NCBI GenBank assembly: GCA_038063815.1
Contig: JBBTUJ010000002.1
Location: 70,511-134,510, forward strand
From: Patescibacteria group bacterium
GTDB taxonomy: Bacteria > Patescibacteriota > Minisyncoccia > Phycocordibacterales > EsbW-18
Reading direction: 5' to 3'
Length of the DNA: 64,000 nt
Below the pieces are notes generated by a model that was given only the letters and a program-made list of their open reading frames with translations, ran no database searches and had not been told where the DNA came from. Of the stretch, positions 3,315 through 35,537 are shown one piece after another. The number at the start of each line of letters is the position of its first letter. Position 1 is the stretch's first letter. Position numbers and translations under genes: made by a program.

Positions 3315-3387
3315 TGGACCCTACCGGATTCGAACCGGTGACCTCCTCATTGCAAATGAGGCGCTCTACCAACTAAGCTAAGGGCCC
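3315..3387 (-). tRNA. tRNA-Ala (anticodon TGC)
   Basis: Cloverleaf folded by hand on the minus strand: acceptor GGGCCCT/AGGGTCC with G3:U70 Ala identity pair, anticodon loop TTTGCAA, T-loop TTCGAAT. Confidence 0.85.
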
Positions 3388-3870
3388 GTGGAAAAGAGTA
3401 TACAGGTGAGAAACGCGAAAATCAAAGGCAGAATTGCTCTTCCGTGCTCGTTTGATATGCTTACCCATATGAGTCCTTCGAGAAAAATATTACTTGTTGA
3501 TGATGACCCAAGCATCACCAATCCGCTTTCTGAGCGCCTTACGGGTGCAGGATATACGGTATTTGTTGCTCACACAGGAACAGAAGGACTGACAGCAGCA
3601 CTCAAAGAACATCCGGAACTTATACTGCTTGATATCATGATGCCCGAGATGAACGGCTGGGAAATGCTTGAGGAATTGCAGAAAGATCCGTGGGGTAAGA
3701 CCGCACCTGTTATCATCCTCTCGAATATGGATGACATGGACAACGTATCGCAGGCGGTCGCGCACCAAGCGCACGAATACATCATTAAAGGAAGTTGGAC
3801 GATGGACGACATCGTTCGAAAGGTAGAAGAAAAGTTTGCATATCAAGAGGCCGCTCCTGCGGGCGACTAG
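3388..3870 (+). CDS. response regulator receiver-domain protein (CheY-like, single domain)
   Basis: KILLVDDDPS...LILLDIMMPEMNGWEML receiver motifs. The true start is probably an internal Met at 3457 or 3469, because the ORF as drawn abuts the tRNA. Confidence 0.75.
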   Translation: MEKSIQVRNAKIKGRIALPCSFDMLTHMSPSRKILLVDDDPSITNPLSERLTGAGYTVFVAHTGTEGLTAALKEHPELILLDIMMPEMNGWEMLEELQKDPWGKTAPVIILSNMDDMDNVSQAVAHQAHEYIIKGSWTMDDIVRKVEEKFAYQEAAPAGD

Positions 3871-3937
3871 CGGAGTTGGTTAGAGCGTTCGCTTCACCAC
3901 ACTAGAGCGGTCACAGGTTCGAATCCTGTGTCGCCCA
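3861..3937 (+). tRNA. aberrant tRNA-like element (possible pseudo-tRNA or att remnant)
   Basis: Perfect 7-bp acceptor stem GGGCGAC/GTCGCCC, canonical T-arm ACAGG-TTCGAAT-CCTGT and discriminator A. The D-stem is weak, and the anticodon region forms only a CGCTT/GAGCG stem with a 10-nt loop. It overlaps the stop codon of the response regulator gene. Confidence 0.35.
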
Positions 3938-3940
3938 TAA

Positions 3941-4022
3941 TTGTTGGAGTTGGAAATTAGGAGTGAGAGGTTAGTGATTAGAGTTAGTTTAGTCGTTGGT
4001 CGTAGGTTGTAGGTCGTTTGTT
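3941..4022 (+). repeat. G/T-rich low-complexity repeat (GGTCGTAGGTTGT family), copy A
   Basis: About 80 bp with essentially no C on the plus strand. Homologous to copies at 5760-5842 and 39305-39395. Confidence 0.6.
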
Positions 4023-4028
4023 ATTTCC

Positions 4029-4100
4029 GCTCTCGTCGTTCAATGGATAGGATGTCTCCCTCCGAAGGAGACGATGCAGGTTCGATTCCTGCCGAGAGCA
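4029..4100 (+). tRNA. tRNA-Arg (anticodon CCG)
   Basis: Acceptor GCTCTCG/CGAGAGC, anticodon stem TCTCC/GGAGA, loop CTCCGAA, T-arm GCAGG-TTCGATT-CCTGC. Confidence 0.85.
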
Positions 4101-4178
4101 CACGAGCGAAGCGAGTGCACCAAAACCGTGGGTTTCCAAAAAGTGAGATAGCGTAGCGTCCTGCTGAGAGCAAAATAT

Positions 4179-4445
4179 ATGCACATTAGAGTCACCGTTC
4201 GTGTAAATGCAAAGAAAGAATCGATTGTGGAAAAGAAAGAGGGAGTATTTACTATTTCGGTTCGTGTTCCCGCCGAACGAAATCTTGCCAATATTCGTGT
4301 TCGCGAGATTCTTGCATCACGTTTCGGTATACCGATCGGAAAAGTCCGTATTTTGACAGGTCACAAAAGTCCGAAGAAAATAATCTCTGTAGAGAGTTGT
4401 TTGTCTGACAAAAAAAGGTCGCAAAACGTGAATGTTCGGGTATAA
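4179..4445 (+). CDS. DUF167 (YggU/UPF0235) family protein
   Basis: 88 aa. The pattern RVTVRVNAKKESIV...ISVRVPAERNLANIRVREILASRFGIP...ILTGHKSPKKII matches the DUF167 consensus. Confidence 0.65.
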   Translation: MHIRVTVRVNAKKESIVEKKEGVFTISVRVPAERNLANIRVREILASRFGIPIGKVRILTGHKSPKKIISVESCLSDKKRSQNVNVRV

Positions 4446-4495
4446 TCCTTGCGCGGGCTTGTCCGACAAAGCCCTGTAAGATATGGGGCGACGTC

Positions 4496-4566
4496 GGGCC
4501 TATGGTCTAGTGGTATGACGCGGCATTCGCATTGCCGAAGCTCGAGTTCGATTCTCGATAGGTCCA
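4496..4566 (+). tRNA. tRNA-Ala (anticodon CGC)
   Basis: Acceptor GGGCCTA/TAGGTCC with G3:U70, anticodon stem CGGCA/TGCCG, loop TTCGCAT, T-arm TCGAG-TTCGATT-CTCGA. Confidence 0.85.
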
Positions 4567-4599
4567 CAGGCGAACTCAAATTCGCTCAAAAGAGGTTTA

Positions 4600-4670
4600 C
4601 GGGCCGTAGTATACCGGTAGTACACACGCTTCGGGTGCGTGTAGACCGAGTTCGATTCTCGGCGGCCCGA
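4600..4670 (+). tRNA. tRNA-Pro (anticodon CGG)
   Basis: Acceptor CGGGCCG/CGGCCCG (C1:G72 as in bacterial tRNA-Pro), D-stem GTAT/GTAC, anticodon stem CACGC/GCGTG, loop TTCGGGT, T-arm CCGAG-TTCGATT-CTCGG. Confidence 0.85.
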
Positions 4671-7476: not shown

Positions 7477-7505
7477 TTGACGTACAAGCAGTAGTGTTAT
7501 ATTGT
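7477..7505 (+). promoter_or_regulatory. sigma70-like promoter for the small GC-rich gene
   Basis: TTGACG, a 15-17 bp spacer and TATATTGT, followed by SD AGGAGG 5 nt before the ATG at 7531. Confidence 0.4.
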
Positions 7506-7530
7506 CGATACAGACAACCCAGGAGGAACC

Positions 7531-7773
7531 ATGAAATCAGTGCGAGTCCAACCCGAACAAGGTGGTAACGTGTTGCTGGTGGACGTTGTCTGCAACTGCG
7601 GTAGCAACGGTCTCACGAATGTCGAGACGGGGGAGGCCAGCTACAAGCACAACGTTCGCCTGGGTGAGCCGGCGAAGGCCGTGGACACGGTGCTGCGGTG
7701 TAGGTGTGGGAAGTCCTACCGACTCCACCCGCAGAAATCTCACCTCCACGTCTTCGACGAATCGGCATCCTGA
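7531..7773 (+). CDS. small Cys-rich hypothetical protein (putative zinc ribbon; atypically high GC)
   Basis: 80 aa with CNCG...CRCG. Strong SD, own promoter and own terminator. GC is markedly higher than in the surrounding genes. Confidence 0.55.
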   Translation: MKSVRVQPEQGGNVLLVDVVCNCGSNGLTNVETGEASYKHNVRLGEPAKAVDTVLRCRCGKSYRLHPQKSHLHVFDESAS

Positions 7774-7805
7774 CGATTTCCGTCGATTAGGCGCGGTTGT
7801 TTCTA

Positions 7806-7855
7806 GCCGCCGAGGGCCGTGCGCTCCTCGGCGGCCTTCTCGTTTATCTTTTTTG
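7806..7855 (+). terminator. rho-independent terminator
   Basis: GCCGCCGAGG-gccgtgcgct-CCTCGGCGGC followed by a T-run. Overlaps the convergent 3' end of cysS. Confidence 0.6.
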
Positions 7856-25395: not shown

Positions 25396-26706
25396 TTAAA
25401 GGTCTTTCGTTATCCGTGCGAGAAGATTTGAAATGGGAACACGTTCTTGCTTCATCGTATCTCTATCGCGAACGGTTACTGCGTCGTCGGTGAGCGTCTC
25501 AAAATCAACAGTGATGCAATACGGCGTTCCGATTTCATCTTGCCGTCGATATCTCTTTCCAATATTCCCGTTGTCATCCCACATGACCTGTGGAACAGAT
25601 AATTTCAAGTTGCCGTAGATCTCTCGTGCTTTTGCAACAAGTTCAGGTTTATTTTTGAGAAGCGGAAATACGGCCGCTTTCACGGGAGCAATGCGAGGGT
25701 TGAACTTAAGAACCGCACGGGCGTCATCCCCTTCTCCTTCTTCGTGATATGCAGAAAGAAGAATAGCGAGAAGTGTGCGTTCGACACCGAATGATGGCTC
25801 AATCACATGCGGCACGAATTTTTCTTTCGTTTCCTCATCCATGAATGATAAATCAACAGAGGAACCTTTTGCGTGTGCGGAGAGATCAAAGTCGGTCCGG
25901 TATGCGAGTCCGTAGAGCTCTTTCTGGCCGAACGGATAGATGAATTCAAAATCGATGGTGCGTTTGCTGTAGTGTGCGCGTTCCCCATCGGGGATCTCGT
26001 TCTCTTTGACGCGCGAGGTATCAATCCCAACGGCTTCAATCCATCCATGCATGAGCGTTCGCCAGTCCTCGAATGTGCTCTCCCAGTATTTCGGATTGAT
26101 AAAGTATTCAATCTCCATCTGTTCGAATTCACGAGCTCGGAAAACAAAATCGCGCGGTGCAATCTCGTTTCTGAATGCTTTTCCTATTTGCGCGAGACCA
26201 AATGGCAACTTTGGGTGGAACGAATCAACGATGTTCTTGAAGTTCACAAACATTCCTCCTGCTGTTTCAGGACGGAGATATGTGACAGACGCTTCGTCCT
26301 CGGTTGCGCCGATATGCGTCTTGAACATCATGTTGAATTGTCGGGCTGCGCCCAAAGAGCCGCCGCAATCGGGGCATTTTGTCTTATCGTCGAGGTGGTC
26401 TTCGCGGAACCGTCGTTTACATTTGGCACACTCGACCAAGGGGTCAGAAAAGCCCGCAACGTGACCGCTTGATTCCCAAACCTTTGGTTGCATCAAAATC
26501 GCGGCATCAACCCCGTAGATATCATCTCGTGAGTCAACAAATATCTTCCACCACATGTTCGTGATATTCCGCTTGAGGGCGATTCCAAGAGGACCGTAAT
26601 CCCACGTTCCTGCCATTCCGCCATAAATTTCTGAGCCGGGGTAGATGAATCCGCGGCGTTTGCAGAGCGATATGATGTCGTCCATGGATACGGATTTTTC
26701 TGTCAT
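25396..26706 (-). CDS. glyQS: glycine--tRNA ligase (alpha2 dimeric type)
   Basis: 436 aa. N-terminal LCKRRGFIYPGSEIYGG...WDYGPLG, class II motif 2 (KAFRNEIAPRDFVFRAREFEQME) and a Zn-knuckle insertion CAKCK...CPDCGG. Confidence 0.8.
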   Translation of the reverse strand: MTEKSVSMDDIISLCKRRGFIYPGSEIYGGMAGTWDYGPLGIALKRNITNMWWKIFVDSRDDIYGVDAAILMQPKVWESSGHVAGFSDPLVECAKCKRRFREDHLDDKTKCPDCGGSLGAARQFNMMFKTHIGATEDEASVTYLRPETAGGMFVNFKNIVDSFHPKLPFGLAQIGKAFRNEIAPRDFVFRAREFEQMEIEYFINPKYWESTFEDWRTLMHGWIEAVGIDTSRVKENEIPDGERAHYSKRTIDFEFIYPFGQKELYGLAYRTDFDLSAHAKGSSVDLSFMDEETKEKFVPHVIEPSFGVERTLLAILLSAYHEEGEGDDARAVLKFNPRIAPVKAAVFPLLKNKPELVAKAREIYGNLKLSVPQVMWDDNGNIGKRYRRQDEIGTPYCITVDFETLTDDAVTVRDRDTMKQERVPISNLLARITKDL

Positions 26707-27052
26707 GTAAAAACTATATCACGAGAATAGGTATATTTTTAGAATAAAAAAAGAGCGGCCGTCCCATGGAGAGACGACACGCTTGGAGAGGTCGGGAAGA
26801 CGGCATGAACCGTACTACGCCCCCGACTAAAGGAACTGCTGGAGGGAGACCACACCATTGGTCTCAGGACTCATGCTCGCCGGAACGAGCACTTTCTGGG
26901 AGGTTTGGTCTCCCGGAAAACATACGCGTGATCTTTGACAGAGCATCACACGATGGCACGTCATCCGCAAATGCGGCCTCCCCCCGACTTGCTACCCCTT
27001 ACTACCCCCGCCCGCTCTGAAACCACCCTATCACGTTTATTAAAATATGCAA

Positions 27053-28141
27053 CTACACCCCTTCTTCTTTGAGTTTTTCGATGAGGTCTTTTGCTTGTCT
27101 TGAAAGTCGTTTTGGCATGTCAACCTCAACGATGACACGGAGCGCTCCTCTTCTGCCGTCGCGACCGGGGACACCCTTTCCGCGAATTGATATCTCGTGT
27201 CCGTGCGAGATACCGGGTTCGATGGGAACGCTCACTGGTCCGTCGAGTGATTCGATCGTGTACGTTCCTCCAAGAAGCGCGTCAGAGAGTTTGATGTGAA
27301 GAAGTGTCACGAGGTCATTCCCATCTTTTTGTATCGAAGAGTGCGCTTTGACGTGGACCTTTACGTAGAGGTCTCCCGCCGTACCGTTTTGTATTGCCTC
27401 TCCAGCTCCTGTGAGACGAATCATCTCACCGTCTTCCATTCCCGGAGGAATGATAATGCGTGCCTCTCCTTCTTTGCGCGAAATCCCCGCACCCCCACAC
27501 TCACTGCATGGTTTTGAGGGGAGTGTTCCTTTTCCGTGACACGCCCCACACGTGGTTACTGTCGCGAATGTACCCAACATCGATGTTCGTGTCTCACGGA
27601 TCTTTCCTTTTCCGTTACACGTCTTGCATGTCTCTTGTGTCGAGCCGGGCTCACCTCCACTTCCTTTGCATTTCTCACAGACAGCCGCTTTTCGTACGAG
27701 AACATTTCGCGTTGTGCCAAAAATCGCTTCTTTGAAATCAATCTCAACGTCAATCGAGATATCACGGCCGCGTCGCGAACGCGCGCGACCTCCGCCACCA
27801 AACATCTCGCCGAAGATGTCCCCCAAGTCGAATTCAAATGCTCCGCCGTTCTGTGCGCCGGAGAATTGTGAGAAGTCGAAGTTAAACCCTTCAAATCCCG
27901 AGAATCCTTGTGGTCCTCCACCTCCTCCCCCTGCGAATGTTTTGCCGTATGTATCGTATTGCGCGCGTTTTGCATCATCCGAAAGGACGCCGTATGCCTC
28001 GTTTATCTCCTTGAATTTCGCCTCATCCCCTCCTTTTTTGTCAGGGTGATACTTATGCGCCAGTGTCCGGAACGCCTTCTTGATGTCGTCTTTTGTTGCG
28101 CCCTTGTTAACGCCGAGTGTTGAGTAGTAATCCTTCGCCAT
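27053..28141 (-). CDS. dnaJ: chaperone DnaJ
   Basis: 362 aa. J-domain with HPD, a G/F-rich region and four CxxCxGxG zinc-finger repeats. Confidence 0.9.
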   Translation of the reverse strand: MAKDYYSTLGVNKGATKDDIKKAFRTLAHKYHPDKKGGDEAKFKEINEAYGVLSDDAKRAQYDTYGKTFAGGGGGGPQGFSGFEGFNFDFSQFSGAQNGGAFEFDLGDIFGEMFGGGGRARSRRGRDISIDVEIDFKEAIFGTTRNVLVRKAAVCEKCKGSGGEPGSTQETCKTCNGKGKIRETRTSMLGTFATVTTCGACHGKGTLPSKPCSECGGAGISRKEGEARIIIPPGMEDGEMIRLTGAGEAIQNGTAGDLYVKVHVKAHSSIQKDGNDLVTLLHIKLSDALLGGTYTIESLDGPVSVPIEPGISHGHEISIRGKGVPGRDGRRGALRVIVEVDMPKRLSRQAKDLIEKLKEEGV

Positions 28142-28207
28142 ATTTGACTTTTGTCACTTATTATACTATTGTCCCGACAGACGCACAACCACTCAAGGAG
28201 AAAAGCC

Positions 28208-28813
28208 GTGAGCAATCTCGAAAGAGTACATGTCGCCATGTCGAGCCAAATGAGGGGTGATGACAATGAAATCACTTTCCGCGGCTTGAGCGACGAGGAA
28301 GTCGAGCGATTGCAAGGGATGTTGCAAGGACAGTGGTGGGTTTCCGGCAATCACGCCAACGGGCGTCTCCGGTTCAGCGGTGGATGGTTGCCTGCCCCCG
28401 ATCCGGTCACGGATGAGGCGATGGAACCTTTCTGGCGTCGATACGAGCCCCAACATCCGCCAACGCCCCACCAGCAGGTCATGCTGACCTCCAAGACCAG
28501 CTGGAAGCACTCCTCGCCCCACTTCTCCATCCAGAATCTCTGCGGGTACAACTACAGCCGCGAGAACTACGCCCGCAACGCGTGCCTACTGGAGACCTAC
28601 GGTTTCGTGTGTCTCCGGTCCCGCCGCGAGGAGGATGGGAAGTACTGGGAAATCTGGTTTCTTTCCGGTCTCTGGGCGGCGCGGGGTGAACTCCAGAAGA
28701 ACCTGCGGGAGCGCGACGACGTGGAGGGAGCGATCTCTTTCCTCTGCCGGACCGTCCAGTTCGGTACGCTCGATGTGGCAGTGCAACGTGCTGCCATGCC
28801 GTCTCCCGACTAG
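28208..28813 (+). CDS. GC-rich hypothetical protein (about 201 aa from GTG 28208; ATG alternative at 28229)
   Basis: SD AAGGAG lies 6 nt upstream of GTG. Longest frame in a high-GC block. Trp-rich, no TM, no recognisable family. Followed by a GC-clamp terminator. Confidence 0.5.
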   Translation: MSNLERVHVAMSSQMRGDDNEITFRGLSDEEVERLQGMLQGQWWVSGNHANGRLRFSGGWLPAPDPVTDEAMEPFWRRYEPQHPPTPHQQVMLTSKTSWKHSSPHFSIQNLCGYNYSRENYARNACLLETYGFVCLRSRREEDGKYWEIWFLSGLWAARGELQKNLRERDDVEGAISFLCRTVQFGTLDVAVQRAAMPSPD

Positions 28814-28831
28814 GGTTTTCTTCAAGGCCGT

Positions 28832-28866
28832 GGGGCCCGCGTTCGCGCGGGCTCCGTTTTTTATAT
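28832..28866 (+). terminator. rho-independent terminator
   Basis: GCCCGCG-ttcg-CGCGGGC hairpin, then TCCGTTTTTT. Confidence 0.6.
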
Positions 28867-28920
28867 CAATTTTTTCAGCAGGTTTTCAACTTTTAGCCAC
28901 ATTTTATTACCTATGAAGTA

Positions 28921-28941
28921 TTCTGGGCTTCTGCAGAAACT
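28921..28941. repeat. 21-bp direct repeat TTCTGGGCTTCTGCAGAAACT (copy 1), containing the palindrome TTCTGCAGAA
   Basis: Identical 21-mer recurs at 29246-29266. Palindromic cores also occur at 29203-29212 (TTCTGCAGAA) and, as a half-site, at 31114-31126. Confidence 0.7.
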
Positions 28942-28952
28942 CAGAATAGTTT

Positions 28953-29222
28953 ATGAAGAATACAAAAGAACTCGAAAAAATATTTAAGGCGTGTGCCAAT
29001 TATCATCGCATCGATATTTTGCTCTTACTTGAACGGCGGCCAGATATATCCGTATTTGATATTGCTGACGAAGTGAAAGGAGATTTCAGAACAGTATCAG
29101 AACATCTACGCAAACTGACACTTGGTGGTCTGATTGTTAAACGTAGAAAAGGGCTTGCGGTCGGGCATTCGATCACTGAGCGCGGTGAAAGGGTTCTTGG
29201 TTTCTGCAGAACCTTAGAGTAG
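28953..29222 (+). CDS. winged-helix (ArsR/HTH-like) transcriptional regulator
   Basis: 89 aa. YHRIDILLLLERRPDISVFDIADEV...VSEHLRKLTLGGLIVKRRKG is an HTH-plus-wing pattern. Flanked by palindromic repeats. Confidence 0.6.
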   Translation: MKNTKELEKIFKACANYHRIDILLLLERRPDISVFDIADEVKGDFRTVSEHLRKLTLGGLIVKRRKGLAVGHSITERGERVLGFCRTLE

Positions 29223-29245
29223 TTAATTTGATGAGGGTTGAGGTT

Positions 29246-29266
29246 TCTGGGCTTCTGCAGAAACTT
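29246..29266. repeat. 21-bp direct repeat TTCTGGGCTTCTGCAGAAACT (copy 2)
   Basis: Exact copy of 28921-28941, downstream of the HTH gene. Confidence 0.7.
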
Positions 29267-29360
29267 GGAATAGAGCGGAGGGTTGTTGAAATAGAAAAAG
29301 TTGTTGGAAGGAGGTTTGTTGGAGTAGAAAATTAGTAGTTGAGGTTGGAGGTCGGGTGAG

Positions 29361-29389
29361 TTGACATGTGTGTTTTACAAAGGTATAAT
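29361..29389 (+). promoter_or_regulatory. consensus sigma70 promoter (TTGACA-17-TATAAT)
   Basis: TTGACA at 29361-29366, exact 17-bp spacer, TATAAT at 29384-29389. Preceded by a GTTGTTGGA-type repeat tract and followed by SD GAGGAGG. Confidence 0.55.
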
Positions 29390-29457
29390 GCAAGAGGATA
29401 CAGAAGCGTCAGAAAACGGGATTCCACCCGCTCAAAACCATCCGAGGAGGAAAGCTT

Positions 29458-30066
29458 ATGGATGTCCAGAAAGCCGAGCAGATGCTCTGGCAGAGGGCTG
29501 ACGAGCTTTCTGCCGAACGAGATGCGCTCTCCAAGAAGAGCGACGAGCTCTTCCAGATCTGCGGACGAGTCCGCAAGGGAGAGCTCAAGGGTGCCGACCT
29601 TGTGAAGTTGGAGGGGCGTTACTGGGAAATCCAGCGACGTCTCGAGGCGATTACTGCCGAAGAGGCAGAGATTGTCCTCGATCTCGAGATGATTTCGCGA
29701 GGTGTGATTCCGGAGAAGTTCGCGGAGTCAGCCCAGTCCGCCCTCTCGAAGCGCCGTCAGGCGATTGCCTCCGAGGAGGCGCGAATGTTGCCTCGCGAGG
29801 ACGAGGACCAGTTCTGGGAGGCGTATGTTCCCGGATACCAAGGGAAGCGTCCCAAGAGCGCTCGTCATCAAGCGGCATCCAATGGGCGCTTTCTCACAAC
29901 GGGTCGTCACGCGACCCATGTGACGGGGCAACTTTTGCCAGAGATCGCCCCCGATGCTTTCTTCGAGGCGACGGCTGACACTCACGGTGGTAAGGTCCGA
30001 GGCGGTTCAAAACCCGTCAATGGGACCTACATCTCCAAGGGAGGGAAAGCAATTCGGAAGTTCTAA
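29458..30066 (+). CDS. GC-rich hypothetical protein with N-terminal coiled-coil (202 aa)
   Basis: Perfect promoter and an SD with AAGCTT directly before the ATG. Tandem GC hairpins and a T8 terminator follow. No family recognised. Confidence 0.55.
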   Translation: MDVQKAEQMLWQRADELSAERDALSKKSDELFQICGRVRKGELKGADLVKLEGRYWEIQRRLEAITAEEAEIVLDLEMISRGVIPEKFAESAQSALSKRRQAIASEEARMLPREDEDQFWEAYVPGYQGKRPKSARHQAASNGRFLTTGRHATHVTGQLLPEIAPDAFFEATADTHGGKVRGGSKPVNGTYISKGGKAIRKF

Positions 30067-30070
30067 ACAC

Positions 30071-30121
30071 GCCGCGCAACGCGCGGGCCCGCCCAGACCA
30101 TGGGGCGGGTTCGTTTTTTTT
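30071..30121 (+). terminator. rho-independent terminator (tandem GC hairpins plus T-run)
   Basis: GCCGCGC-aac-GCGCGGG and CCCGCCC-agaccat-GGGGCGGG, followed by TTCGTTTTTTTT. Confidence 0.65.
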
Positions 30122-30141
30122 ATATAGTTTTTAAGAGAAAG

Positions 30142-31002
30142 TTACGTTTTAACTCTCATCACGAAAACCTGGGCGTTCTCAAGCAACAGTCTCACTTTGT
30201 GATCATCAATGTTTAATTTTTTTGGAGATACCAAGTTATTTCTTTCTTCCATAAAACTGTGACGCTCGATGCTAAATCCTAGATCACTAAAAAAACGAAC
30301 GGCATGCTCTTCGTTGTCAAAAAGATTGTTATCTATGTTTATTCCTGTTATCTCGTTTATCTTATCTCGTAAACCGTGTGCCACAACCTCACTGTCCTGC
30401 ACCATTCTTTTTTTTGAGATATCCGGAGTGATCCAGACACCGCCGAACTTTTCGAGAATCTTATGAATGTTTTTTGCAACCACAGCCTTTTGTTCGAAAG
30501 AGAGATATCTCAATAAGCCCTCATGTATAACAGCAATAGGCTTTTTTTCATCAAAATGCTTGCACGCCAAGAGGAGTTCTTCGTAGACTAAAGCATCTGC
30601 TGGTTCAAAGTATATATTTGCAGGGAGTTCTTTTTTGAATTTCGATAGTATTTGTTTCTTCTCTTCGATTAATTTTGAAAAGTCCGTTTCCACATATGTT
30701 ACCCGGGAATCCTCTGAAAGTTCCAAACCCCGCGGAGAAAGTCCAGCGGCAATCTCGAGAATCTGCGTTATGCCACTTTCCTTCAGAAGACGGTTGGCTA
30801 GTTTGTACCTTGCCTCAAATTGGGGGCTCAGCCGAGTATCCTTTACCACTTCTGGAATCGTTTCGCCTGCCTCAATACGAATTTTTTCCATCTCGTCAAA
30901 TATTTCCTTAGAGAAAGGAATATCAGAGAATGTTCGGCAGTGTGCCACAAGCCACGCTGTCGGTATTACTTTTTCGTTCCCCACTTTCGAATGCTTTTTC
31001 AT
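30142..31002 (-). CDS. class I SAM-dependent methyltransferase, LCM/TcmP-like O-methyltransferase family
   Basis: 286 aa. QILEIAAGLSPRGLEL and YVETDF resemble the LCM family GAGLDTR and E-D-P motifs. Lies 36 bp downstream of res on the same strand. Confidence 0.5.
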   Translation of the reverse strand: MKKHSKVGNEKVIPTAWLVAHCRTFSDIPFSKEIFDEMEKIRIEAGETIPEVVKDTRLSPQFEARYKLANRLLKESGITQILEIAAGLSPRGLELSEDSRVTYVETDFSKLIEEKKQILSKFKKELPANIYFEPADALVYEELLLACKHFDEKKPIAVIHEGLLRYLSFEQKAVVAKNIHKILEKFGGVWITPDISKKRMVQDSEVVAHGLRDKINEITGINIDNNLFDNEEHAVRFFSDLGFSIERHSFMEERNNLVSPKKLNIDDHKVRLLLENAQVFVMRVKT

Positions 31003-31038: not shown

Positions 31039-33570
31039 CTATTTTTCAAGAAGGTCTTCGAGAGAGCTTCTGAAATGCTTTTGAAATAACCTACCATCGA
31101 GAAGATATTCGCAAAATTCAGAATAGTTTGAGGGACTTAAGAAATGAAAGAAGTAGTTCTGATTAACTTTTGCTTTCTTTAATTCCTCATTTAGGGTTTT
31201 AAAATGTTCCTTTGCCCAACGGTATTTGGCCTTATTTTCATCTGACTCATCACCGTCCATTTTGATTTCCACAACAACAATATTGTTGGCAAGCTTTAGA
31301 AAAAAATCCGGATTAAAGTTAGCCTGCGTCTGATGCTCACCTTTGCGCCACGAATACTCAATGCTATAAAAATTTTGATCCCTTGACTTTATCCAAGCGT
31401 CAATCTTTTCACTAACTTTTGAACTAACAATAGCTTGAACAAACTTTCTTTCGGGCTCATGTTTAGTAAAAACAATATTTATAGGTGTTTTAAAACAATA
31501 GTAGTTTATTTCCTTACTAGCCCTTTTAGGTAAACTTTCATCGTTAATAATGTCCGAAAGAAGATCATATTGTTCTTTTGAACACTCACTTTCATACTCA
31601 TCAGAATAAAAAACAGTTGCGTCATGTCTAAGGGCGCCAATAGCAATACTTTCCTGTTCTAAATTTCTCGTACTTATTTTTTTTGGCTTTTCGACTTTTC
31701 TTTTAAAAATAATTGTAGATGCTCGAGTTCTAAAAAGTGTTTGAAAGGTTCCAAAAATCTTTTTTGTATTAATTTCAGTTAAAACACCACTTTTAATGCC
31801 AACTACCTGCATAGATTTTTTCACATGCTCTCGGATCTCATTTTCGGGTGGTAAATCTTCTTTCGTATAAATTCCCTTCGGGAAACGTATTTTTGCTTCA
31901 AAGTCTCGCGTTTTGAAAGTATCGATAATTTTTGTAACAACTTCATCTATTGTATAAGTTTCTTTTTGGACAGTTGTTGTTTTACGTATTATTCCACCTT
32001 TTAAATCTTCGTACTCAGTTTCTTTTTCATCATGTTCAACCTGGCTTACCAATTTTGTGTATCCTTTCGAATAATCAAATTCCTCAGTATCTTTTTTTGC
32101 TTCCACCTCTTTTTCTTCTTTTGTAAAATCTATGTTATAAATGTCAAAATGATAATTTTCGCGACCGCCAAATATCAACGGAGCACTTACTAGACGAACC
32201 TCTACTTCTAAAATTTCATCAATAAGACCACGGATATTTCGACTCCATGCGTCATGATTAAAAACACGAACCTTTGGCTGTGGTGATTTATACGCTTCAG
32301 GCACACGCAATCCGCGACCAAGCACTTGAGCTATGAGAAGTTTTGAATTGAACGCCCGGTCTTCCCATGGCACAATTTGAAAAACATTTTTTACATCCCA
32401 GCCCTCGGTTAGCATAGAAACTGAAATAATCCATTCAACTGGGTTATTTTTTTCGTCTACACTTTTTAACTGCAAAATGTTTTTCTTGTGATCTTTGTGG
32501 GAAGTAACAATCAAAACTTTTTTCTCAACGGCGATGCGTGAGATTTTTTCGCGTTTTTGCAAAAAATCAACCAAATCTTCTCGAAGCGTTTTTGCTCTTG
32601 AAATATCTTTTGTAACAAGCATTGTAAGTGGTTTAATGAGTCCATACTTTTTTACAAATTCGTCATGGTTATCATAAATCTTTTGAAATTTCTCATTTGT
32701 ATCAATGCTTTCGTCTTTTGCCACATAATCAACAGATTTTACTACATGTTCATCAACCGCCTGTCGGATTGAGTAACGATAAATGACGTCATTAAAATAC
32801 TCATCGTCAATGTACGCTGTTCCGGTAAAGCCGAGAATATATTTGAATCCGTAATCAGAATTAAGTAAAAACGCTTTCCATTTTTTTATATCCGTATCCA
32901 GTGAAGCGTTGTAGGCATGATGGACTTCATCGTTCAAAACCAAGACACGCGCCCCGCTGCCTTTCAAGCTATCTTGTATTGATGATCCAGTACGTTCGTA
33001 AACGGCATGGATATTTTCCACCGCAATGTCACCATTTTTTATAGTGCTATTTGCGTCAATAATGCGAGGATTTTTATACACCGCATCGTTGGGTAGGGTG
33101 GTTTTAATTCGATCATCGCCAGAAAGATTTTGAAACTTCTCTTTTAATCCTGCCTCAATAGTGAGCGATGGGCAAAGTACAAGAACCCTATCAACCAATC
33201 CAAGTCCTAAAGCAATTTGCGCAATTCCGTACATTACATAACTTTTTCCTGTTCCTGTTGCCAAATCAATAACACCAGATAATTTGTGAGGTAGCTGTAA
33301 GTTCTTTTCGTATTCGCGCGTATCTTTGTATCGATCTCGTAATTCAACATTCGTTCGCCAATTTTCGCTGATCAAATCTTCAATTGAATCGTATTCGCCA
33401 GAAGCAATGTAGGTTATTGCCGTGCGGATCGCGTCTTTTTGGTACTCTCTATCTGGACAAAGCACATCAATGAAATCTATCCATTGCTTGAGTTTCAACT
33501 TCGTGGGATCAAATTTTTCTTTAACCTCTAGAACCAAATCTTGTGTTTTATAAATCTTGATGTCTGTCAT
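31039..33570 (-). CDS. res: Type III restriction enzyme, Res subunit (SF2 helicase-nuclease)
   Basis: 843 aa. Walker A LATGTGKSYVM and a DEAH-type box VLNDEVHHA. Directly downstream of mod with an ATGA start/stop overlap. Confidence 0.85.
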   Translation of the reverse strand: MTDIKIYKTQDLVLEVKEKFDPTKLKLKQWIDFIDVLCPDREYQKDAIRTAITYIASGEYDSIEDLISENWRTNVELRDRYKDTREYEKNLQLPHKLSGVIDLATGTGKSYVMYGIAQIALGLGLVDRVLVLCPSLTIEAGLKEKFQNLSGDDRIKTTLPNDAVYKNPRIIDANSTIKNGDIAVENIHAVYERTGSSIQDSLKGSGARVLVLNDEVHHAYNASLDTDIKKWKAFLLNSDYGFKYILGFTGTAYIDDEYFNDVIYRYSIRQAVDEHVVKSVDYVAKDESIDTNEKFQKIYDNHDEFVKKYGLIKPLTMLVTKDISRAKTLREDLVDFLQKREKISRIAVEKKVLIVTSHKDHKKNILQLKSVDEKNNPVEWIISVSMLTEGWDVKNVFQIVPWEDRAFNSKLLIAQVLGRGLRVPEAYKSPQPKVRVFNHDAWSRNIRGLIDEILEVEVRLVSAPLIFGGRENYHFDIYNIDFTKEEKEVEAKKDTEEFDYSKGYTKLVSQVEHDEKETEYEDLKGGIIRKTTTVQKETYTIDEVVTKIIDTFKTRDFEAKIRFPKGIYTKEDLPPENEIREHVKKSMQVVGIKSGVLTEINTKKIFGTFQTLFRTRASTIIFKRKVEKPKKISTRNLEQESIAIGALRHDATVFYSDEYESECSKEQYDLLSDIINDESLPKRASKEINYYCFKTPINIVFTKHEPERKFVQAIVSSKVSEKIDAWIKSRDQNFYSIEYSWRKGEHQTQANFNPDFFLKLANNIVVVEIKMDGDESDENKAKYRWAKEHFKTLNEELKKAKVNQNYFFHFLSPSNYSEFCEYLLDGRLFQKHFRSSLEDLLEK

Positions 33571-33572
33571 AA

Positions 33573-35537
33573 CTACTTCAAATTAAATATTTCTCGGAAT
33601 TCGTTACCGTAAACATCAACATAAATTGTCATCATATACTTTCCACATTTTTTGCTCTCAAAATCTAAAGTGATTTCTTTGCAGTTCTCAAGTTCTTTTT
33701 GAATCTGTTTCTCATTGCCTTCCTCATTATCTTTTTTACCTATCAAATCTTGTGCAAAGAAGTATTCACTCATCAAAAATTGATCCCTGTTATATTTCAA
33801 ATCAACAAGTACCATCGCCAAGCTCTCAAAGTTTTTTAACTTCTCTCCGGTCTCGTCTTGAGCGTAAGCAGATTCAAATTTCTTAATTTTGAGCACAATC
33901 TTGTTTTTTGTCAGTTTTACTTCCGATTTTACTTCCGGTTGACGCACAAAGTGAAAGCCAATAGCATCATCAAGATCATTAACCTGACCCTTACTTTGAG
34001 GTTGACGTAGTTTTTTAAACTGCACCTTATGTAACTCTTTAATAATTTGATAAGGCACTTTCAAAAAGTAATAGCGCGTGCCGTCAATTTCATGATAGTC
34101 ACTAATAAAATTAACATTGTTTGCCGGGGCAATAATATACATACGCCCATTGATTTTTGCGCCAAGATTTTTGTGTAATTCGTTTAGATATTTTTCATCA
34201 ACGCTTGCTTCTTGTACTTCCCAATACGGAAAAAGTTTTACATAAAATTCTCGACGTTTTCCGTCTAGCGATACGCCACCGATGGACTTTACTTTAGTTT
34301 CCGCTACTTCAAAAAGTCGCTTCACAAACTCTATATACTCATCTTTTTTAAGAGAAAAAACTTTTTCTAAATCATAAAGACCAGAAGTAACAATTCCAAA
34401 AGATTTAGCAACTTTTGCATAATCTTTTTTTGGATTGTCCAAGCTCTTACTCTCTTGGATTTCCAAAAGTCGTTTCTGTATTGTGTAAATTGCTAATTTG
34501 CCGATATCACACCCAATCCATCGACGGCCAAGCTTTTCGGCAACAGCAAGGGTTGTTCCACTTCCAGCAAAAACATCCATAACGATATCATCTGGACTGG
34601 AAGCTGTTAAAATAACCCGACGCAATAACTCCTCTGGTTTCTGGGTCGGATATCCAATGTATTCTCGGCTTGCTGATTTCGTCGTAGAGCTTTGACCAAT
34701 TTCCCAAACATCATCAGCTTTTTTCTCTGTAAAATCCTCGTAAATTAACTTCCCTCCCTTATCTCGTGCAGATATCAATTTCCCCAATTCCTTAGACCAA
34801 ATCCGTTTATCACGCCGAACAGTCTTATTGAGCGGGATCATCACCTTGTTTGCCGTGTAAATATCAGATTTTGAGTACCAAAAAATATTGTTGTGGTTTA
34901 CTGCGAAACCATCTACGTTTCCCTGAAAGTTGTCAGAGTAGTGCCAGATAATTTCATTTACAAAGTTATTTTCACCAAACACCTCATCCATAACAACTTT
35001 TAGATATTGTGCCTTCTTCCAATCAAGGTGAACAAAAATACTTCCATCATCCGCTAAAATTTCGCGCATCAATACCAAACGGCGGCGCAAAAATTCAACA
35101 AATTCTGCACCTTTGGCTTTGTCAGAGTACGCTTTTTGTCCCTTGTTGCCGGAAAAGTCCTGTGCTGTGGCAAAGGGTGGGTCAATATAAATTAGTTTTA
35201 CTTTACCCTTAACCTTTCCTTTGATGAGGGGGTCTTCATCTTTATAAAAAGTTTTGAGGATTTGAAGATTATCACCGAACACTAAAAGATTATGCCAATT
35301 TTTTGCAGCAAGAGGGTATTTTGTGCCGTTAAAAATTTTCTCAGTTTGAAGCGGGACAGCTTTTGCTTCCTCGTTGTCTGCCAAAATATCCTCTTTGCGT
35401 GCTTTTCCAGAATAAACAAGCTCGTACTCTTTTTGTTTGGTCGGAAAAATTGCGTACTTATATTCAGCGGGAATTTCTTTACCCGTCTTTAAGCACTCAA
35501 TTAGAAATTCTATGTCGTATTTGTTTAAATCGCTCAT
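33573..35537 (-). CDS. mod: Type III R-M N6-adenine DNA methyltransferase, Mod subunit
   Basis: 654 aa. LIYIDPPFATAQDF (motif IV DPPF) and VMDVFAGSGTTLAVA (motif I). Confidence 0.85.
   Translation of the reverse strand: MSDLNKYDIEFLIECLKTGKEIPAEYKYAIFPTKQKEYELVYSGKARKEDILADNEEAKAVPLQTEKIFNGTKYPLAAKNWHNLLVFGDNLQILKTFYKDEDPLIKGKVKGKVKLIYIDPPFATAQDFSGNKGQKAYSDKAKGAEFVEFLRRRLVLMREILADDGSIFVHLDWKKAQYLKVVMDEVFGENNFVNEIIWHYSDNFQGNVDGFAVNHNNIFWYSKSDIYTANKVMIPLNKTVRRDKRIWSKELGKLISARDKGGKLIYEDFTEKKADDVWEIGQSSTTKSASREYIGYPTQKPEELLRRVILTASSPDDIVMDVFAGSGTTLAVAEKLGRRWIGCDIGKLAIYTIQKRLLEIQESKSLDNPKKDYAKVAKSFGIVTSGLYDLEKVFSLKKDEYIEFVKRLFEVAETKVKSIGGVSLDGKRREFYVKLFPYWEVQEASVDEKYLNELHKNLGAKINGRMYIIAPANNVNFISDYHEIDGTRYYFLKVPYQIIKELHKVQFKKLRQPQSKGQVNDLDDAIGFHFVRQPEVKSEVKLTKNKIVLKIKKFESAYAQDETGEKLKNFESLAMVLVDLKYNRDQFLMSEYFFAQDLIGKKDNEEGNEKQIQKELENCKEITLDFESKKCGKYMMTIYVDVYGNEFREIFNLK

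Follow-up and report, generated by a model that had tools for sequence, protein, structure and literature searches.

A mosaic accessory island in a groundwater Patescibacteria genome: two probably acquired single-gene units and a predicted ArsR-type repressor between its putative operators

Introduction

Expression signals that look too perfect, combined with restriction-site palindromes, raise the question of whether a locus has been engineered, conceals a hidden system or has a more ordinary origin. This question is posed by three neighbouring genes, here called geneA, the HTH (helix-turn-helix) gene and geneB, in a Patescibacteria (candidate phyla radiation, CPR) genome from Hainich groundwater, well H41. 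The genes lie in a 64,000-nt stretch of contig JBBTUJ010000002.1, hereafter the window, to which coordinates refer unless another locus is named. An initial annotation had read them as one cassette, either an acquired autonomous module with a defence, toxin or regulatory function or an engineered insert. The analysis described here favours a different answer. The region is likely a mosaic accessory island, in which two horizontally acquired, self-expressed genes stand beside an autoregulated ArsR-type repressor that is bracketed by its own operators, the three genes being read as three independent monocistronic transcription units. Each of these elements is of a kind already known, and the region adds a new example.

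The three genes are arranged as follows; the NCBI labels in the region, AAB460_00935 and AAB460_00945, denote hypothetical proteins.

28208-28813, + strand: geneA, GTG start, 201 amino acids (aa)
28953-29222, + strand: HTH gene, ATG start, 89 aa
29458-30066, + strand: geneB, ATG start, 202 aa

The spacers measure 139 nt between geneA and the HTH gene and 235 nt between the HTH gene and geneB. The description of the two outer open reading frames (ORFs) as GC-rich and without a recognisable family holds, as searches with geneA and geneB against Pfam, PHROGs, PADLOC, NCBIfam and PDB sequences were all negative. Likewise, the gene between them does encode an ArsR-like HTH protein that matches Pfam HTH_24 and HTH_5 above cut-off.

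Genomic linkage of the three families

The relatives of the three genes were located in other genomes: 22 geneA loci (16 from GTDB species genomes and six from IMG/VR) and further places, five geneB loci and 80 HTH loci from metagenomes. Co-occurrence was scored at the level of the neighbourhood by hidden Markov model scans of all six-frame ORFs, covering 6-8 kb on either side of geneA; the geneA locus scan of genomes used an alignment of 11 sequences. Within this distance no geneB was found at any of the 22 geneA loci, no geneA was found near the five geneB loci, and neither geneA nor geneB was found near the 80 HTH loci. Over about 107 loci of the three families there is thus no conserved linkage. 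The genes around geneA and geneB elsewhere include those for BipA, tRNA synthetases, Mur ligases, ribosomal proteins and SurA. For both families these neighbours are diverse and mostly housekeeping genes, without conserved synteny beyond close relatives, and the geneB homologues have no conserved partner gene upstream. The 103 unique neighbours of the HTH loci match 129 Pfam families, none of which occurs in more than three proteins.

These results do not bear out the proposal of a three-gene system. The initial annotation had staked it on conserved homologues in conserved synteny; the homologues are conserved, the synteny is not. Furthermore, geneA and geneB are not homologous to each other: a relationship between them, prompted by shared 'G[KR]YWEI' DNA words, was rejected at an hhalign probability of 0.1%. 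A type II toxin-antitoxin module was also considered and rejected, since each gene has its own terminator, the spacers are long (139 and 235 nt) and the HTH family has no conserved partner. The same applies to an anti-phage defence system, as geneA and geneB match no PADLOC family at E <= 1 and show neither co-occurrence nor enrichment of defence genes around them. The suggested defence or toxin role is therefore not sustained: the homologues sit amid housekeeping genes and not in restriction-modification (R-M) or defence islands.

The HTH family and its predicted operators

The HTH gene is flanked by an exact 21-bp direct repeat, TTCTGGGCTTCTGCAGAAACT, at 28921-28941 and 29245-29265, as the initial annotation had observed. 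Both 21-mers are parts of a longer element, an imperfect palindrome of about 30 bp that is present in three copies:

28919-28948: O1, imperfect 30-bp palindrome TATTCTGGGCTTCTGCAGAAACTCAGAATA, predicted operator, centre 19.5 nt upstream of the HTH ATG
29192-29221: O2, degenerate palindrome, 79% identity to O1, within the last HTH codons
29243-29272: O3, palindrome with the exact 21-mer in common with O1, beginning about 20 nt past the HTH stop

The palindrome core, TTCTGCAGAA, occurs three times in the 64-kb window, against 0.11 expected, and all three copies lie around the HTH gene. An HTH homologue in another genome (L006:2130-2500) is likewise bracketed by palindromes, with the core TTCTATAGAA.

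This arrangement is a property of the family. At least 308 relatives of the HTH protein were found in metagenomes, and the palindromes were surveyed in 63 unique complete ones. An upstream palindrome with the core ATTCT-NN-AGAAT is present in 62 of the 63, its centre most often 45.5 nt before the ATG and beside -10-like boxes. A downstream palindrome at the 3' end is found in 58 of the 63, and in 42 of these 58 its centre falls 7.5 nt past the stop codon. The TAA stop lies inside the left arm (ACATTCTAA...) of the downstream palindrome, and the right arm carries a compensating change (...TTAGAATGT). Across the relatives the consensus of the predicted operator is AAcATTCcaACATTCTgcAGAATGTtgGAATgTT, with the layout AACATTC-N-AACATTCT-NN-AGAATGTT-N-GAATGTT, in which a second ATTC/GAAT half-site flanks the core. 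The two bases at the centre are not fixed (GC, AT or TG/CA), and this centre tracks three subtypes of the recognition helix, NFKTISQHTRS, DFKNISQHTRR and N[FI]KT[IV]SEHTRR. Among the HTH loci (L037-L116), seven (L044, L076, L081, L082, L084, L093 and L104) have three to five copies of the palindrome or two HTH genes. A literature search on the operator sequence and on Patescibacteria palindromes of the ArsR type returned nothing relevant.

Since a conserved, symmetric and sequence-specific element travels with a dimer-forming winged HTH (wHTH) protein, operator function with autorepression is the simplest explanation. Judging from this conserved architecture, the palindromes are most likely the cognate operators of the HTH protein, which would bind them as a dimer or a pair of dimers and so repress its own promoter. 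Having paired sites on both sides of the gene may in addition permit looping, or a roadblock or hairpin where the gene ends. The PstI palindrome in the repeats, which had been counted among the hints of an engineered insert, is not a cloning scar and finds its simplest explanation as an accident of the operator subtype with a GC centre: it coincides with the centre of the family-wide predicted operator, where relatives carry TATA or TTGA/TCAA. The operator nearest to geneB lies about 100 bp upstream of its -35 box and none is found near geneA, which leaves no basis for regulation of the flanking genes by the HTH protein.

The HTH protein itself is a minimal winged-helix protein, scoring 23.1 bits against Pfam HTH_5 (cut-off 22), 25.9 bits against HTH_24 (cut-off 21.9) and 49.6 bits, under the cut-off of 55, against the NCBIfam ArsR/SmtB model (HTH_metalloreg). 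Of the Csa3/CasR models in PADLOC it matches only the generic wHTH part. Its only cysteines are C14 and C85, and at what we take to be the position of the ArsR CxC motif it reads ISVFDIA. Inspection of the sequence did not reveal the metal- or metalloid-sensing residues of ArsR proteins, namely the CxC of helix alpha3 and the His/Asp/Glu site of helix alpha5. Because metal-site cysteines are lacking and the ArsR/SmtB score stays below the cut-off, the protein is called ArsR-type by fold only.

In comparison with SmtB, CadC and SdpR, the HTH protein is alike in being a small winged helix (about 90-120 aa) with HTH_5/HTH_24 matches. It also resembles them in the imperfect palindromic operator predicted at its own promoter, which implies dimer binding and autorepression. 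However, it differs from them in showing no alpha3 CxC or alpha5 metal-site residues and in having no cognate resistance operon behind it, its neighbours being random. In addition, its family has a long palindrome of four half-sites that occurs twice, bracketing the gene, with the stop codon inside the downstream copy. With the controller (C) proteins of R-M systems it shares a small HTH and palindromic boxes in an R-M island. Nevertheless, C proteins are of the Xre type, and their genes lie directly before the endonuclease gene or overlap it, whereas the HTH protein is a winged helix encoded on the opposite strand, with geneB and a methyltransferase gene between it and res. Its relatives are not linked to R-M systems either (one of about 70 loci), so that it does not belong with the C proteins.

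Expression signals of geneA and geneB

The promoter of geneB, both Shine-Dalgarno (SD) sequences, the HindIII site and the GC hairpins with T-runs that end both genes are present as had been annotated, at refined coordinates:

28144-28172, + strand: geneA promoter-like site TTGACT-17-TATTGT, 9 of 12 consensus positions; weak evidence, from a consensus scan only
28195-28200, + strand: geneA SD AAGGAG, 7 nt ahead of the GTG
28830-28857 (at its widest 28830-28863), + strand: geneA intrinsic terminator, 12-bp stem with nine GC pairs and a T-run
29361-29389, + strand: geneB promoter TTGACA-17-TATAAT, perfect sigma-70 consensus, 12 of 12 positions
29444-29450, + strand: geneB SD GAGGAGG, 7 nt ahead of the ATG
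29452-29457: HindIII site AAGCTT, abutting the geneB ATG and occupying the spacer between SD and ATG
30083-30114 (at its widest 30083-30122), + strand: geneB intrinsic terminator, 12-bp stem with nine GC pairs and a T-run

The geneB promoter is the sole match to TTGACA-17-TATAAT with at most one mismatch in the 64 kb, where 0.21 are expected, and its position predicts a 5' leader of about 62 nt. The promoter-like site of geneA overlaps the start codon of the divergent dnaJ. In a scan of 12 kb, the terminators of geneA and geneB were the top two by strength. A terminator is also a feature of the geneA family, as a hairpin with a T-run follows within 100 nt of the stop codon in 14 of 17 genomes by a strict scan; in the other three an imperfect one was seen by eye.

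The homologues of geneB are built differently at the 5' end. In three of them (L036:5990-6003, L117:5990-6003 and L118:5985-6003) a TATAAT-like box stands 6-9 nt ahead of the ATG, which points to near-leaderless mRNAs. As the geneB homologues are host-like in GC and near-leaderless, the 62-nt leader, the strong SD and the high GC content are traits of the copy in the window and not of the family.

Two further observations concern the DNA around these signals. A near-identical T/A-rich stretch, TTTTTTATAT[CA][AG]TTTTT, follows both terminators (28850-28878 and 30107-30135; 76% over 29 nt) and could be either a T-rich chance resemblance or a common feature of the insertion site or donor. Between O3 and the -35 box of geneB, about 90 nt (29273-29360, + strand) are nearly free of C, with GTTGTTG and GGAGG words and a GC skew of up to +0.8; Tandem Repeats Finder (TRF) found no tandem repeats in this tract.

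Composition and origin of geneA and geneB

The GC content is 0.602 for geneA and 0.588 for geneB, compared to 0.422 for the HTH gene and 0.469 for the window. At third codon positions (GC3) the difference is larger, with 0.75 for geneA and 0.67 for geneB against a mean of 0.477 (standard deviation 0.084) for 69 ORFs of the window. The codon-usage distance to the host is 1.60 for geneA and 1.63 for geneB, which is beyond all of 50 size-matched host chunks (0.97 +/- 0.14, maximum 1.31). The distance between the two genes, 1.18, is below their distance of about 1.6 to the host, and similar donors are possible. The neighbouring R-M genes are shifted in the opposite direction (GC3 0.30-0.35). With the R-M genes low and geneA and geneB high in GC3, the island is a mosaic.

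The geneB family as such is not GC-rich, since its homologues elsewhere have a host-like GC content. Furthermore, the genes in the window for ribosomal proteins, dnaK and the RNA polymerase alpha subunit have GC3 values of 0.35-0.62, those for ribosomal proteins and dnaK being near 0.5. As such native, highly expressed genes stay well below geneA and geneB, acquisition from GC-richer donors is the best explanation. On this compositional evidence, the two copies were most likely acquired horizontally and separately. Each acquired gene would bring its own promoter, ribosome-binding site and terminator, and an origin in GC-richer donors would make these signals look like textbook examples in a host of 47% GC. 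Of the suggestion of a recently acquired autonomous module, the foreign composition and the self-sufficiency of the units are thus retained, with recent horizontal transfer as the best reading, and the joint module is not.

A third GC-rich unit stands alone in the window, at 7477-7855 (+ strand) between two genes on the - strand. It has a GC content of 0.59 and a GC3 of 0.73, a promoter-like TTGACG-17-TATTGT, an AGGAGG at 7521-7526 and a GC hairpin with a T-rich tail at 7806-7835. Its ORF (7531-7773) encodes 80 aa with a zinc-ribbon-like CxC...CxC pattern. Like geneA and geneB, the unit looks foreign and self-expressed.

The geneA and geneB protein families

The geneA family consists of compact proteins of about 200 aa. 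A total of 83 matches at 31-53% identity were obtained, and a search of 1.84 billion representatives yielded 384 clusters at 50% identity. The family is widespread in Patescibacteria, where it is mostly chromosomal with host-like GC, and it extends to a few large-phage-like contigs. The alignment of all 31 members returned nothing from the family libraries (Pfam, PHROGs, PADLOC, NCBIfam), and sequence-profile searches of the PDB with geneA and geneB gave coiled-coil noise only. In an AlphaFold model built on the family alignment, which is confident (pLDDT 82), a disordered linker joins a small N-terminal beta-beta-alpha-beta-beta domain to a C-terminal ferredoxin-like domain. The invariant elements of the latter are LCGY, Y121, GF-C-RSxR, ExW and FGxLDVxxQR. 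A low-confidence guess at its function is that geneA probably resides in the cytoplasm and uses the ferredoxin-like domain, with its invariant Cys, Arg-Ser-x-Arg and Glu-x-Trp, to bind a nucleic acid or a phosphorylated ligand. Compared to the Cas2/VapD endoribonucleases and to RAM- or ACT-like domains, geneA has an extra N-terminal domain. It has neither the CRISPR nor the VapX context of Cas2/VapD, nor a sequence-profile match to them, and is not assigned to that group. In one Saccharibacteria metagenome-assembled genome (L007:7313-9303) three geneA paralogues, one of them partial, lie in tandem.

Six geneA homologues (31-42% identity) lie on IMG/VR contigs of 27-388 kb (L021-L026), in tightly packed arrays of genes on the same strand. 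Their flanks encode DNA polymerase A, DnaB, RecA, RecT, a phage PDDEXK nuclease, GP17 Sie and nucleotide metabolism, and about 70% of the ORFs are unassigned. Judged by this gene content, the contigs probably represent large phages. Searches of PHROG, BFVD and GenBank phages with geneA gave no match. The phage-like flanks keep a role of geneA in phage-host conflict alive, for which GenBank phages, PHROGs and PADLOC give no support, and geneA may take part in phage-host interplay.

geneB belongs to a separate family, also widespread in Patescibacteria, with eight matches by sequence and at least 93 relatives by profile. In its AlphaFold model on the family alignment, likewise confident (pLDDT 79), a disordered linker connects an antiparallel coiled-coil hairpin at the N-terminus with a basic C-terminal tail, which holds the invariant motif LTTGR...TADTHGGKV...GK.IRK. 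Its function is likewise a low-confidence guess: geneB probably acts as an elongated coiled-coil adaptor that docks on a nucleic acid or a partner by means of its invariant basic C-terminal peptide. The likeness to ESCRT-III/PspA, prefoldin and the arm of seryl-tRNA synthetase is confined to the hairpin and is not diagnostic: geneB has no Pfam Snf7 or PspA match, and its invariant C-terminal TADTHGGK motif has no known counterpart. Long geneB homologues contain no informative domain fusions by Pfam, and viral searches found no relative of geneB.

The accessory island and its surroundings

In the order of the chromosome, glyS precedes dnaJ, and dnaK and grpE follow the last gene listed here:

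Before dnaJ, - strand: glyS
27053-28141, - strand: dnaJ
30142-31002, - strand: gene for an LCM-type (LCM/TIGR00027-type) S-adenosylmethionine (SAM) methyltransferase, GC 0.41
31039-33570, - strand: Type III res
33573-35537, - strand: Type III mod
Beyond mod, - strand: dnaK and grpE

The grpE-dnaK ... dnaJ heat-shock cluster is thus interrupted, between dnaK and dnaJ, by about 7.4 kb of accessory DNA in the order Type III mod-res, LCM-type methyltransferase, geneB, HTH gene and geneA. The methyltransferase gene is on the same strand as res and directly adjoins it, and may belong to the R-M island. The position in an R-M island that had been taken to fit a defence function is confirmed insofar as the accessory island adjoins the Type III R-M genes; the defence function is unsupported. 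An integrase, a phage structural gene or an att-like repeat was not found in the dnaK-dnaJ island. Rfam searches, of the whole window at the gathering threshold and of 26650-30200 at E <= 1, detected no RNA family in the leaders or spacers.

Elsewhere in the window, the spacer between the dnaJ stop and the glyS start (26707-27052) is 346 nt long and GC-rich (0.585), and a hairpin with a T-run lies just upstream of glyS (26778-26758, - strand). The spacer looks like a regulatory leader or non-coding RNA, with no Rfam match at E <= 1. Five tRNA genes are clustered at 3315-4670.

Alternative explanations

The three genes could still form one functional module, in which the HTH protein senses a signal and controls geneA and/or geneB; these would work jointly, for example in defence, as a toxin-antitoxin pair or in anti-restriction, in connection with the adjoining Type III R-M system. 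The genes are adjacent on one strand beside the R-M system, O3 lies between the HTH gene and geneB, the L006 locus brings an HTH and a geneA homologue together, another HTH locus (L098) adjoins a res/mod pair, and geneA has relatives on phage-like contigs. Nevertheless, the lack of conserved linkage over the loci surveyed, the lack of PADLOC matches, the separate terminator of each gene, the distance of O3 from the geneB -35 box with no operator near geneA, and the housekeeping surroundings of the homologues render such a module very unlikely. Somewhat more can be said for geneA, and perhaps geneB, as phage-derived cargo resembling the 'morons' of phages, brought in by a phage or mobile element and serving superinfection-related or host-modulating functions. 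Both genes have the defining look of a moron, that is a promoter and an intrinsic terminator of their own and a GC content that sets them apart from their neighbours, and to this are added the six geneA homologues with phage-like flanks and the third GC-rich stand-alone unit at 7477-7855. However, they lie outside any recognisable prophage, in an island without integrase, phage structural gene or att-like repeat, and both families are mostly chromosomal. Relatives on phage contigs are known for geneA only, which lacks PHROG, BFVD and GenBank-phage matches and whose homologues mostly have host-like GC, and the IMG/VR contigs themselves are only putatively viral. A moron-like origin is therefore considered unlikely.

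The high GC content and the strong signals might instead result if native genes had been selected to be expressed at a very high level. This would account for the perfect promoter and the strong SDs and terminators, and in 15 of 17 genomes the geneA homologues do have, by a few points on average, a higher GC content than their flanks. On the other hand, the native highly expressed genes of the window do not reach the GC3 of 0.67-0.75 seen here, geneB homologues elsewhere are host-like or lower in GC, and the codon usage of the two genes lies outside the host range and is not an exaggeration of it, all of which makes this explanation highly improbable. That the region was engineered, is a contaminant or arose as a chimera during assembly, as the textbook signals, the HindIII site at the ATG and the PstI site in the repeats might suggest, is refuted for practical purposes. 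Over all junctions the window agrees at 99.995-100% identity with five contigs that were assembled independently from several H41 samples, and no DNA match was found in plasmid and phage collections. Moreover, the PstI site is the centre of a natural predicted operator found in dozens of environmental relatives, and both proteins have hundreds of divergent natural homologues.

The preferred reading, of two separately acquired single-gene units around an autoregulated repressor, has points against it as well. The transcription units are predicted from sequence signals. Linkage was judged at the level of the neighbourhood, and in L006 the HTH homologue lies 2.1 kb from the geneA homologue, so that the two may be loosely associated at the level of the island. 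Exact look-ups of DnaJ and of the HTH protein for an island-free strain variant turned up only the same arrangement; with no such sibling genome, the argument for a recent acquisition is one from composition. The covariation between recognition helix and operator centre is confounded by phylogeny, and the long perfect palindromes might serve, in place of an operator function or alongside it, as RNA hairpins or recombination sites. Lastly, O1 is centred 19.5 nt from the ATG compared to the modal 45.5 nt; this unusual proximity and the position of O2 inside the last codons of the ORF mark the HTH gene of the window as a divergent member of its family.

Implications

In a metagenome-derived genome, signals that seem too perfect and restriction-site palindromes can arise without engineering and without a concealed system; in this case they are best traced to single-gene units that were probably acquired horizontally and to the predicted operator of a repressor. 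For workers on Patescibacteria, geneA and geneB represent two well-delimited unannotated families, each with a structure model and invariant motifs. Within the geneB family, homologues that look near-leaderless stand next to a copy with a strong sigma-70 consensus promoter and SD-led translation.

The unit of palindrome, wHTH gene and palindrome exists in hundreds of copies beside unrelated genes, with the stop codon within its own predicted site. There is an outside chance that it constitutes a self-contained, portable and possibly mobile regulatory or insulator cassette of Patescibacteria, or that geneA, geneB or both are the first members of new protein families for phage-host conflict or episymbiosis, which spread horizontally as self-expressed single-gene units. 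The consensus of the predicted operator is provided for an abundant family of ArsR-like regulators, in organisms with almost no known transcription-factor sites. The result that lends itself best to reuse is the arrangement of operator, gene and operator that is conserved in the HTH family, as predicted from its palindromes.

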